Below, one piece after another: positions 16,134 to 21,275 of a DNA stretch of 25,006 nucleotides. Below the pieces are notes generated by a model that saw nothing but the letters and a program-made list of their open reading frames with translations, had not been told where the DNA came from and searched no databases. The number at the start of each line of letters is the position of its first letter. Position 1 is the first letter of the stretch. The translations under genes were made by a program, and so were the position numbers. The stretch comes from Minisyncoccia bacterium (GTDB taxonomy: Bacteria; Patescibacteriota; Minisyncoccia; Phycocordibacterales; PCTT01): the NCBI GenBank assembly GCA_041601015.1, contig JBFIIZ010000001.1:1-25006 (forward strand), read 5' to 3'.

Positions 16134-19100
16134 TTAGAACTCCTCAAAGAAGATAGACGAGATAGCTTCTATTTCAAGAATAATAGTAGCTGTTCTGGTC
16201 TGAGAACCGTCTGGGTTTTCGCCTCTTACTGTAATTGTATAGTTTCTTTGCCTTGGTTGTCCTTCAAGTCCAATGTTAAACACTGAACCACTTCTATACT
16301 CACCCGAAGTAAGAACTGGTTTCTTCAAATCTATGGTTATGTCGGATAGATTTGGAGATATACCCTCGTAACTTAGAGTCACATCTTCTGAAAAACCATT
16401 GAATGGGACTACTTTTATAACAGCGTCTGTAGTTGTACCTCTACCACTAAGAGATTTTTGTTTTAATTTACCAACCGCCTGTAAAGAGAATGTTGGTGGC
16501 GGAGAAGACTCGTCATTATCGTTAAGACTACTACAGTCAGGGTCATTTGTTGCTCCAGTGCCATAGTCTATTAAGGTATCACCGTCATTGTCTATACCGT
16601 CTCCACACTGACGCGGTACAGTGAGTGTTACATGAGGAGATTCATTTATTTCACCAGTTCCCTGTGTCTGACACTCAAGCCAAACTTCGTACACACCTAC
16701 ATCATTCGGGGCCTGTAGGTCATAGTTATCAGGCCAAACAGCTGGGACCGTGCCTCCATAAGGTTCGCTCGGGCCACCAGAAATTACTCGGGAAACTACT
16801 TCTAGCTCATTATCATCTTCCCAGGCACCACTATCACTCCACCACCATTTAATATTGGCACCCGGCGCAGCTGTAAGATTTGTTGAATGTTCCTCTCCTG
16901 TGTCCCAATTAGTCATTTGAAAGGAGTCAATAGAACACTCAGTTGCAATTGATGTATATGTAATTTCAAAAGTAAGTGTTTGTCCTGGGGCTGTAATTTC
17001 GGCCCATAGTGTCGAGCCTGATGTGCTACCAACCTCAACACCTCCTATTTTTGCTGTAATATTCCTTGAATAACCGTCAATATTAGGAACCCTAGTTATT
17101 CTATAAGACCTTCTTCCAGAACCAGGTAGGGTAACGCTATATGTCTTCGTTGAGCCTACAGAAACTGAACCGTCTCTCTCTACACTACGACTTATTCTAT
17201 AAGAAGTGTCTTGGTTTGAAGTTACTTCAATAGTCGCTGTATTTGAGGAACTGACAGTTATAGAAGCTGGGGCAGAAGTCCCCGTTAGACTCTCATTGTC
17301 AGTTGCGACTGCTGTAATCGAATAAGTGCCAACGGGGACATTACTCCATGTGTAGGAATAAGGTGAGCTAGTATCAGTGTTAAGAAGTGTTCCTCCATTA
17401 TAAAATGAGACACTTGATATCGTTCCGTCTGTGTCTGATGCGTCAGCGCTAATAGAGATATTGTCATTTGCTTGGAACACAGAACCATCAGATGGAGCTG
17501 TGAGCGTTGCTGTCGGATTAGATGAAGGAGCTCCTACTGTTACTGTTGCAGAGTCTGTAGGGTTTGCCCCATCAGTTCCTACACAAGTAATTTCAAATAC
17601 AGTATCTGCAGTTAAATCACCAGAACTAACTGCGTTCCCGGAAGTATCCGTGCTCCACGCCACACCATCTTTTGTGACACTACATGATGAGACATTAGCT
17701 GAGCTCCATGTGACGTCAGATGAGCCGTCGTATGCCACTGAAGTTGGGTTGACGCTTATGCTTGCCGAAGATGCTGCTAGTGCTGTATAAGTGATTTCAA
17801 AAGTAAGTGTTTGTCCTGAAGCTGTAATCGTTCCAGAATTGGTTCCAAGCTCAGTAGTTCCTATTTTAGACACAACTGCTTTTGTATACCCGGCAATATC
17901 TGGAATATTGGTTATAGTATAAGTCCTTTGTTCAGAACTCGGTAAGATAACACTATATGTCTGTGTTGAACCAGCAGAAACTGTGTCGGGTTCATCACCC
18001 GTTACATCATGATTAATCCTATAAGAAGTATCGAGGTTTGAGGTAACAGCAACCGTCGCAGTTGGTTGAGGATTAACCGTTACAGTCGCAGACGCCGTTC
18101 GGTTTTGTCCATCTATACCAACACAGGTTATTGCAAAAGTTGTATCTGCAGTTAAATCACCAGAACTAACTGCGTTCCCGGAAGTATTACTGCTCCACGC
18201 TACCCCGCCCTTGGTAACACTACATGATGAGACATTAGCTGAAGACCATGTGACTTCGGAGGATGTATTGTATGAGATCGGTGTTGTGACACTTATGCTT
18301 GCTGATGAAGCAGCAAGTTCTGTGTATGTGATTGTAAATGCTCCAGTACCCCCACGACTTATTGTCGTTGGTGCCGTAACCGCAACACTGTATCCAGTTC
18401 TCGCATCTGGGGTAACAGTGTATGTTGTACCGCTTGCGCCAGGCACGACAACATAACTATTTGTGCCATTAGCGCTTACTATAGTCCCCGTTCCGTCAAA
18501 GTCTCTTATAGTATTAGAATAATTTATTGAATATCCTGTATTAGCAAGGTTTGAGCTAACATTAAGCGTTCCTAGGATAGTAGAGTAAGTAATAGCAAAT
18601 GACTCCGTCGCACTCACAGCAATATCTTGATCAGCCGGATCCACAGATACTATATAATCTGTTACTGAAGCAGGAACAACAAGAAAGTTCGGCTCAAAAT
18701 CACCTACTGTAAATGTAATAGTGTCTGCATCACCTGCTGTACCCGTGGTGCCAGAACTAATCTCTGTGCCATACGAGTCTTCAAAGACATAGCTTGTGCT
18801 ATCTAAGTTGGAAGTTATTTCCGCAACTGCGGTACTTGGTGGTATCGCAGTAACTGTAAGGGTCGTAGAGCATGAGCCTGTGGTTCCGTCTGGGTGAGTA
18901 CCGCTTAGGCTAAGTGTGTAATCACCGTCAGTTGTTGGCGCTGTTACTGATGAAGCTGTGCCACTTGTAGTCTTGCCTCCCGTCCAACCTGACCATGATG
19001 GGTTTGTCGATGCGCTAAGTGCACTTGATATATTAGAAGAGTCCCACTGAATGGTCATGAGCCCTCCACTCTGAACAGAGCTCGTTGTGCCCGTGAAGTT

Positions 19101-21275: not shown

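Follow-up and report, generated by a model that had tools for sequence, protein, structure and literature searches.

A giant multi-Ig protein with a hypervariable N-terminus and a conserved terminal Ig-plus-tail module, encoded at the head of a pilus operon in a Minisyncoccia bacterium

The window analyzed here, by which we mean the whole 25,006-nt stretch of contig JBFIIZ010000001.1 (assembly GCA_041601015.1, Minisyncoccia bacterium), carries on its reverse strand a gene for a 1713-aa multi-immunoglobulin (multi-Ig) protein, P0001, hereafter called the giant, followed on the same strand by pilB and the remainder of a pilus operon. The genome (G000; 542 kb in 70 contigs, approximately 90% complete) was compared with relatives of the same order, a set of 201 genomes designated by G-numbers. 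The closest named match to its PilB is from a Candidatus Campbellbacteria metagenome-assembled genome. Its lineage, within the Parcubacteria/Paceibacteria, is presumably epibiotic. A first-pass annotation of this DNA had presented the giant as a host adhesin analogous to PilY1, the non-pilin protein of type IV pilus tips. The features of the giant and its gene are as follows.

16134..21275, reverse strand: gene of P0001, the exported multi-Ig protein of 1713 aa, assigned from the open frame, its translation and orthologues at the same position
21183..21275, reverse strand: residues 1-31, probable Sec signal peptide; a 19-residue hydrophobic core, then V-E-A↓R, read from the sequence
20550..21182, reverse strand: residues 32-242, orphan hypervariable N-terminal region; no homologue, fast divergence
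20226..20549, reverse strand: residues 243-350, four-Cys cadherin/VCBS-like module; family name taken from the motif pattern only
19896..20225, reverse strand: residues 351-460, FN3-like module, common to many unrelated surface proteins
16608..19895, reverse strand: residues 461-1556, stalk of repeated beta modules; internal repeats and Pfam Big_7
16533..16607, reverse strand: residues 1557-1581, acidic Cys-bounded loop C-G-D-G-I-D-N-D-G-D...C, found by regular-expression search
16161..16499, reverse strand: residues 1593-1705, conserved C-terminal Ig domain (CT); alignments A2 and A3, AlphaFold2 (AF2) model
16137..16160, reverse strand: residues 1706-1713, C-terminal tail ending F-E-E-F-COOH; family alignment

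The open reading frame (ORF) has no internal stops. T, S, G and N account for 45% of the residues of the giant, which contains 26 Cys in total. Its only transmembrane-like hydrophobic stretch spans residues 6-24, with V-E-A↓R coming next; at the matching place, orthologues/paralogues from the relative G002 and the metagenome contig L128 (n = 3) have A-x-A-type sites. In line with the first-pass annotation, the giant has a probable signal peptide, likely cut after V-E-A. Also in agreement with that annotation, we found no C-terminal transmembrane helix, as hydrophobicity analysis gave no hydrophobic segment beyond residue 24, and searches of Pfam and NCBIfam with the giant returned no LPXTG/sortase, SLH, LysM, type IX secretion system C-terminal domain, xxx-CTERM or other anchor. 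The same two databases gave no enzymatic or toxin domain, and nothing in NCBIfam scored above its cut-offs. A class III prepilin signal was also looked for in the giant; its N-terminus reads M-N-N-K-K followed directly by the hydrophobic core, with neither G↓F-T-L-I-E nor E5, and a genome-wide regular-expression search for prepilins did not pick it up.

Most of the length of the giant consists of repeated beta modules. The sole Pfam match above cut-off was Big_7 (PF17957) at residues 1254-1322, with 72.6 bits against a cut-off of 24.1; with this match above the gathering score, a probable signal peptide and tandem beta modules, the giant belongs among the Big_7 repeat surface proteins. Comparison of 90-aa chunks against the whole protein revealed three types of internal repeat, the best pair being residues 975-1080 and 1154-1263 (70-77% identity), followed by 1060-1167 and 1334-1444 (approximately 53%) and by 552-660 and 719-838. 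The first-pass annotation had counted roughly 15 beta modules: the repeats are real, while the number is an estimate from length and repeat period, Big_7 being the only module recognized. The 1713-aa frame and all of the motifs that it had listed were recovered by translation and regular-expression search. These are four AP-x3-G-x-Y motifs at residues 183, 604, 779 and 1522 (0.02 expected in shuffled sequences), five V/I-[TS]-S-N module starts at residues 644, 821, 907, 1078 and 1352, and the DGxDNDGD motif with its paired Cys, which is DGIDNDGD at residue 1559, between Cys1557 and Cys1581. This acidic loop matches NCBIfam acid_disulf_rpt weakly, below its cut-off.

The C-terminal end of the giant is shared with proteins that are otherwise unrelated to it. 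The last ~124 residues align with proteins of relatives (alignments A2 and A3), and the AF2 model of the last 128 residues (predicted local distance difference test, pLDDT, 92) is a complete 8-strand Ig sandwich with the final 8 residues floppy. We defined the family by a terminal Ig domain of ~110 aa (profile A2/A3) followed within ~8 residues by [FYIV]-x-[EN]-[FIYL]-COOH. It has 27 members, namely the giant and 26 more from 20 other genomes, and in approximately 24 of the 27 the motif is the exact C-terminus, in proteins ranging from 340 to 3616 aa. The commonest form of the tail is (D/K)-P-x-F/Y-x-E-F, and the giant has F-E-E-F. The giant matches profile A2 with E = 9.9e-50, being itself part of that profile; it is the sole profile match in its genome and the only one with such an ending among 12 large T/S/G/N-rich ORFs there. 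Of the 150 best-matching other proteins with the Ig body of CT, none had an aromatic-x-E-F tail or a terminal position. Neither the terminal module, nor the tail, nor the positional rule was found in Pfam, NCBIfam or the literature searched; the terminal Ig domain plus tail would be the mark of a previously unnamed family of predicted surface proteins of Paceibacteria/Parcubacteria. The fold itself is generic: Foldseek comparison of the CT model with the PDB and AlphaFold database clusters returned only generic Ig-like folds (TM-score up to 0.7) and no informative family, the S-layer Ig domains of SbsB, Sap and SbsA being among the many matches, and look-alikes in a structure atlas were generic Ig clusters only, all below 0.9. 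A donor-strand polymer like that of the Pam pili of the candidate phyla radiation (CPR) was considered and rejected, as the CT Ig fold is complete without a missing strand and the architecture of the giant differs from that of PamA/PamB as described (PMC13278184), by which description the two were compared.

At the opposite end, the giant is highly variable. Beyond its genus the giant has no full-length homologue: a search of 5.8 billion proteins gave none and matched only the FN3-like module and Big_7; residues ~350-460 were the main region matched by database proteins annotated as fn3/Pur_ac_phosph_N, and two database proteins with prepilin N-termini (P0029 and P0038) have one module in common with the giant. 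True orthologues occur only nearby, at the same position: a protein of 1854 aa in L128, a metagenome contig with the gene order of the window and the source of the nearest orthologue, and one of 1764 aa in G002, a genome with two giants (1764 and 1440 aa). Relative to L128, PilB is 83% identical, nusA, tpiA and pgk 72-79%, and housekeeping neighbours up to 85%, whereas residues 61-420 of the giant are only 22-38% identical (23-38% for residues 61-240). The stalk is 51% identical overall, with 53-85% over residues 481-840, and the C-terminal end 45-57%. No other part of the locus thus diverges as fast as the first ~420 residues. That the giant is exported and adhesin-like, as the first-pass annotation had proposed, is supported, and the ~240 N-terminal residues that it could not recognize include an orphan region: protein searches found no homologue of residues 32-242, and a look-alike search of the structure atlas with residues 32-245 found nothing. 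An AF2 model of residues 1-480, built on a 3-row alignment, had a mean pLDDT of 37 and was unusable. When the three giants of G000 and G002 are aligned (A4), residues 243-350 stand out as the most conserved block; they have been replaced in the L128 orthologue, with which they do not align, and this shows domain shuffling at the distal end.

To place the family in its genomic context, a hidden Markov model of the C-terminal ending was run over the 201 genomes, and the surroundings of all reasonably scoring matches were recorded. The ending profile was found in 35 of the 201 genomes (27 of 155 genera). In approximately 18 of 26 informative genomes, from approximately 13 families, the slot between nusA and the orthologous pilB is taken by a carrier gene. 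At eight loci the carrier is found elsewhere, the other carrier loci sit on contigs whose length allows no assignment, and the genomes counted are related to each other. The slot is occupied in G000, G002 (two carriers), G031 (two), G143 (two), G001, G067, G168, G071, G115, G037, G175, G079, G095, G163, G192, G041 (3616 aa), G185 and G092. Absence of conserved linkage between the giant's family and pil loci in relatives had been named beforehand as the outcome that would count against the first-pass annotation, and the carriers in the nusA-pilB slot across so many families show instead that linkage is conserved. The gene block pilB, pilC, pilins, X430 (a tip pilin described below), tpiA, pgk, (HIT), recJ, rnhA, comEC is itself conserved across the order, with nusA usually divergent from pilB. 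Not all slots are intact: in G037 the carrier lies between nusA and tpiA and the pil genes are gone, and G001, G115, G163 and G185 have kept the carrier with the minor pilins missing from the slot. At two of these loci (L087, G001:C5, and L094, G115:C17) we observed a degenerate PilB beside the tail-family gene and absence of pilC and all minor pilins from the slot; the PilB of G001, partly degenerate, has lost its His box and that of G115 its Walker A motif. No carrier was found in 166 of the 201 genomes (approximately 83%), and most operon-bearing genomes are without one. X430 co-occurs with the ending in 22 of 35 carrier genomes and is present in 79 of the 166 others, a mild enrichment among genomes that are not independent.

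The sequences flanking the giant gene, and the operon beside it, contain the following features.

16088..16123, reverse strand: terminator-like hairpin plus T run, in the gap that separates the giant gene from pilB; 15-pair stem
21350..21820, reverse strand: tm156, a 156-aa bitopic membrane protein directly upstream of the giant, candidate partner; one N-terminal hydrophobic segment, read from the sequence
11549..16034, reverse strand: pilB, pilC and three minor pilins of prepilin type (context), recognized by Pfam T2SSE, T2SSF and N_methyl
10257..11549, reverse strand: X430, a 430-aa PilX/GspK/CpaL-like tip pilin (context); last minor-pilin gene, ends W-N-E-T-E

The hairpin at 16088-16123, which the first-pass annotation had not mentioned, is the strongest terminator-like site in positions 9000-22500 and forms the main stem of the 99-nt gap between the giant gene and pilB, which folds at -34 kcal/mol. 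Equivalent hairpins follow the giant or carrier gene in L128, G002, G067 and G033, and in G175 and G079 carrier gene and pilB lie just 5 bp apart. A promoter-like site (TTGAGT-17-TATTAT, 21329-21357, reverse strand) was noted just upstream of the giant, overlapping the stop codon of the 156-aa gene. A promoter-like site upstream and a terminator downstream suggest that the giant can be transcribed independently.

A copy of tm156 precedes each giant in G002 and in L128, and tm156 could be a genus-specific partner of the giant. As a universal partner of the tail it was rejected, because outside the genus its family was seen only in G023. In G002, a genome of the same genus (L106, G002:C1, 11512-19000), the cassette of small membrane protein and giant is tandemly duplicated, giving three tm156 paralogues and two giants before pilB. 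Elsewhere in the order, small single-transmembrane proteins (104-123 aa) with K/E-rich 'EEK..IL..L' repeats adjoin tail-family genes in several families (L090:8899-9225, L094:7471-7812, L092:2265-2636, L086:10806-11120 and L039:11882-12199); these may be analogues of tm156. We also observed a recurrent secreted family, with an N-terminus of the form ...A-A-W-(S/T)-G-P-T...A-P-I-N-V, in the interval from the tail-family gene to pilB of relatives (L086:11172-12515, L101:6957-8063, L094:8978-9586, L090:10451-10753, and two copies each in L091 and L088). Some of its members have Peptidase_S74 (tail-spike chaperone) or T4 Gp10_C domains and are tail-fibre-like surface proteins. No member of this family was found in the genome of the window.

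Downstream of the giant, in the same orientation, come pilB, pilC, three N_methyl pilins and X430, and then tpiA and pgk, so that the giant does lie beside a minor pilin set on its own strand, as had been noted in the first pass. X430 has a PilX/GspK-like N-terminal motif and a middle part that is variable (the protein has 416-672 aa in relatives), and its end, W-[KRN]-E-[VIT]-[EQ], is kept in 20 of 23 relatives. The X430 family is present in 101 of the 201 genomes and matches no Pfam or NCBIfam family. PilC/PilY1 is fixed on the pilus tip by its last ~10 residues, through beta-strand complementation with PilK, while GspK of the type II secretion system (T2SS), Com and CpaL of Tad provide that strand in cis (bioRxiv 10.64898/2026.02.14.705861). 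By this docking logic X430, with its W-x-E-hydrophobic end, is probably a tip protein of the GspK/CpaL kind, providing the docking strand in cis, and would be the operon's own equivalent of PilK plus PilY1. Like the GspK/CpaL(TadG)/ComGG tip pilins, X430 (but not the giant) combines a PilX-like N-terminus, a last-gene position, a variable middle and a W-x-E-hydrophobic end; the likeness is one of position, N-terminal motif and tail. The first-pass annotation had stressed that the window contains no recognizable PilY1. It is true that no Pfam PilY1/PilC domain was found in the giant or in the ten ORFs on either side, but with a PilY1-type tail probably present in cis at the end of X430 (W-N-E-T-E), the premise of a locus lacking a PilY1 equivalent is weak.

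The operon in the window is a second pilus system, without PilT, PilMNO or an obvious major pilin of its own. A canonical type IVa-like locus lies on contig C21 (L118), with pilMNO-like genes, pilB, a response regulator, pilT, pilC, two major-type pilins and pilD, and an I-J-K minor-pilin trio (I1-J1-K1) lies on contig C34 (L117:125-1779); in addition, seven paralogous genes for major-type pilins are dispersed among the contigs of G000. The window (3863-16034) and L128 both have the pilin operon in ComG-like order (ATPase, platform, pilins) beside DNA-uptake genes, and by analogy the second operon could be a competence-type pilus. We looked for a K-type pilin lacking a terminal strand of its own and found none, as X430 and K1 both appear to have a conserved one. 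Relatives of K1 end in V-E-R-[AG]-h-x-x-x-Y in all nine genomes checked, five of them carriers and four non-carriers, and the idea that K1 lacks its terminal strand in carrier genomes was therefore rejected. A complex prediction for CT (A3) with residues 14-418 of X430 (tail removed; A5), pil170 (A6) and pil162b (A7), run without controls, gave a score of 0.01, the mark being 0.32, an outcome that speaks neither for nor against an interface. In G022 we noted a 616-aa minor pilin with a prepilin N-terminus, Ig-like domains and a long G/S/T linker (L112, G022:C37, 11733-13583), which belongs to a locus containing pilT and precedes a K1-type pilin with the ending R-W-E-T-I-K.

From the architecture of the giant, its conserved ending, its variability gradient and its positional linkage we infer, with a probability of about one half, that it is a Sec-exported, hypervariable adhesive fibre that is retained by the new terminal Ig-plus-tail module and encoded in a surface-protein island heading the pilus operon. 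The protein would be exported by Sec and its signal peptide probably cut after V-E-A; a stalk of approximately 15 Ig-like modules, presumably tens of nanometres long, would then carry the hypervariable N-terminal end outwards, and CT with its aromatic-x-E-F tail would hold the giant on the cell through non-covalent binding to a candidate conserved surface partner. In cell contact the giant would function alongside the pilus, on which it may or may not be mounted. The family would inhabit a variable island between nusA and the second pilB-pilC-minor-pilin operon, a region that in relatives also holds the Peptidase_S74/Gp10_C tail-fibre-like proteins and small membrane proteins. Several observations weigh against this interpretation. 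Eight carriers lie elsewhere, away from any pil gene, and the linkage may reflect inherited gene order, since conservation next to the operon extends to tpiA and pgk. The Ig body of CT is a very common repeat (10,328 proteins matched in a 1.84-billion-protein library); it is so common that the family is told apart only by the tail and its position at the end. Finally, the N-terminal region would be a binding head by virtue of its rate of change, modelling having given no usable fold for it.

The first-pass annotation had gone further than the reading above and made the giant a non-homologous PilY1/PilC analogue that grips the host. With a concrete docking mechanism added here, the tail would be a beta strand inserted in a PilK-type minor pilin, and the giant would sit on the pilus tip. 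Part of this stands, as the tail resembles the docking tail of PilC/PilY1 and the linkage is real; we nevertheless consider the proposal doubtful. The best argument for it is that aromatic-x-E-F at the exact C-terminus resembles the W-charged-E-hydrophobic docking tail, in which a conserved W precedes a charged residue or a pair of them (often R then E) and a hydrophobic residue (PMC13711793). The adjacent X430 ends in W-x-E-hydrophobic, so that the lineage has docking logic of this kind; the gene is linked by position to the operon over approximately 13 families; the two carriers 5 bp from pilB (G175 and G079) fit as well; and a variable N-terminus with a conserved C-terminus is also seen in PilC/PilY1 (Pseudomonas, Neisseria, Kingella, Myxococcus), likewise a large exported non-pilin encoded beside pilus genes and ending exactly in an aromatic, a charged or any residue, E and a hydrophobic residue. 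However, the giant has no seven-bladed beta-propeller or Pfam PilC/PilY1 domain, its CT being an Ig sandwich, and the tails of its family have mostly F/Y, with the W of PilC/PilY1 in 0 of 27 members. Its gene lies upstream of pilB rather than after pilX, and a terminator separates the giant or carrier from pilB in the window, L128, G002, G067 and G033. Both K-type pilins of its genome have their own conserved terminal strand, a situation which in T2SS, Com and Tad goes with absence of PilY1, and X430 would already provide the tail in cis. Thirteen of the 35 carrier genomes have no X430 match, and five genomes whose slot lacks the minor pilins still keep a carrier (G037, G001, G115, G163 and G185), PilB being degenerate in G115 and partly so in G001; the 166 genomes without a carrier and the equal synteny of tpiA and pgk point the same way. 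A related suggestion, that the tail is a monoderm/CPR docking strand that clips an interchangeable hypervariable Ig fibre onto the pilus tip, competing with or adding to the strand of X430, seems to us rather unlikely. If true, the same pilus would be re-armed with different host-recognition heads by a non-homologous, swappable PilY1 analogue in Parcubacteria.

Three further explanations concern how, or whether, the giant is held on the cell. If the hydrophobic segment were left uncleaved, the giant would be anchored by its N-terminus, with the hypervariable part near the membrane and CT plus tail as the distal, partner-binding end. A 19-residue hydrophobic core is long for a signal peptide, and a conserved distal tip that binds a conserved ligand is conceivable, but A-x-A-type sites occur 5-7 residues past the core in all four relatives compared, and a hypervariable membrane-proximal part with a conserved distal tail would be the reverse of what is usual in adhesins, making this arrangement improbable. 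We give similarly little credence to a structural envelope or coat protein, S-layer-like or of a matrix, without a specific role in host recognition and adjacent to pilB through inherited gene order. The S-layer Ig domains among the Foldseek matches to CT and the inclusion of tpiA and pgk in the syntenic block would fit such a protein; a core layer would be expected to be more uniform than a family that is patchy (35 of 201 genomes), of hugely variable domain content and length (340-3616 aa), and represented by one copy in this genome. Alternatively, the giant could be a released exoprotein, or cargo pushed through the wall by the pilB-pilC-pseudopilin set acting as a type II secretion-like piston. 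The operon does combine an ATPase and a platform with three small pilins and a GspK-like cap, with PilT, PilMNO and the obvious major pilin on C21 instead; yet the giant lacks an enzymatic or toxin domain, carriers persist without the operon, and a Com-type DNA-uptake pilus beside recJ and comEC would also account for the operon order, so that we regard release or secretion of this kind as highly improbable.

Other known systems resemble the proposed fibre in part. Modular type IV pilins, such as PilB/PilC of Streptococcus sanguinis and the giant pilins of Patescibacteria, also present Ig or lectin modules at the pilus for adhesion, and in Saccharibacteria pili and enlarged PilX-type pilins are implicated in host binding, the enlarged pilins being the proposed adhesins (PMC12206443); the giant differs in having a Sec-type signal and no class III prepilin signal. 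Parcubacteria are known to encode beta-rich repeat proteins of more than 1500 aa that are likely adhesins (PMC4508563). With these and with giant Ig-repeat adhesins in general, the giant shares a long tandem beta-sandwich stalk, Big_7, an acidic Ca-type loop and lineage-specific domain shuffling. In contrast to type I-secreted giant adhesins, of which SiiE of Salmonella is an example (PMC6272769), it would be exported by a Sec signal and has no LPXTG, type I secretion retention module or outer-membrane anchor; its retention, if any, would be through the new terminal Ig-plus-tail module. What is newly described here is thus the terminal module, the tail and the positional rule, giant beta-repeat putative adhesins having been known in Parcubacteria before.

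How ultra-small CPR bacteria recognize and hold their hosts is little known outside Saccharibacteria. The terminal Ig domain with aromatic-x-E-F-COOH provides a sequence marker for hypervariable surface fibres that head a conserved pilus operon in many families of Paceibacteria. For the annotation of CPR pilus loci it also matters that X430 probably plays the role of PilK plus PilY1 in cis. With the tail, the case of a giant adhesin beside pili becomes a question that can be tested, with a minor pilin, the small membrane partner or the wall as its possible target, and the N-terminal ~400 residues of the giant are the place to look for host specificity.

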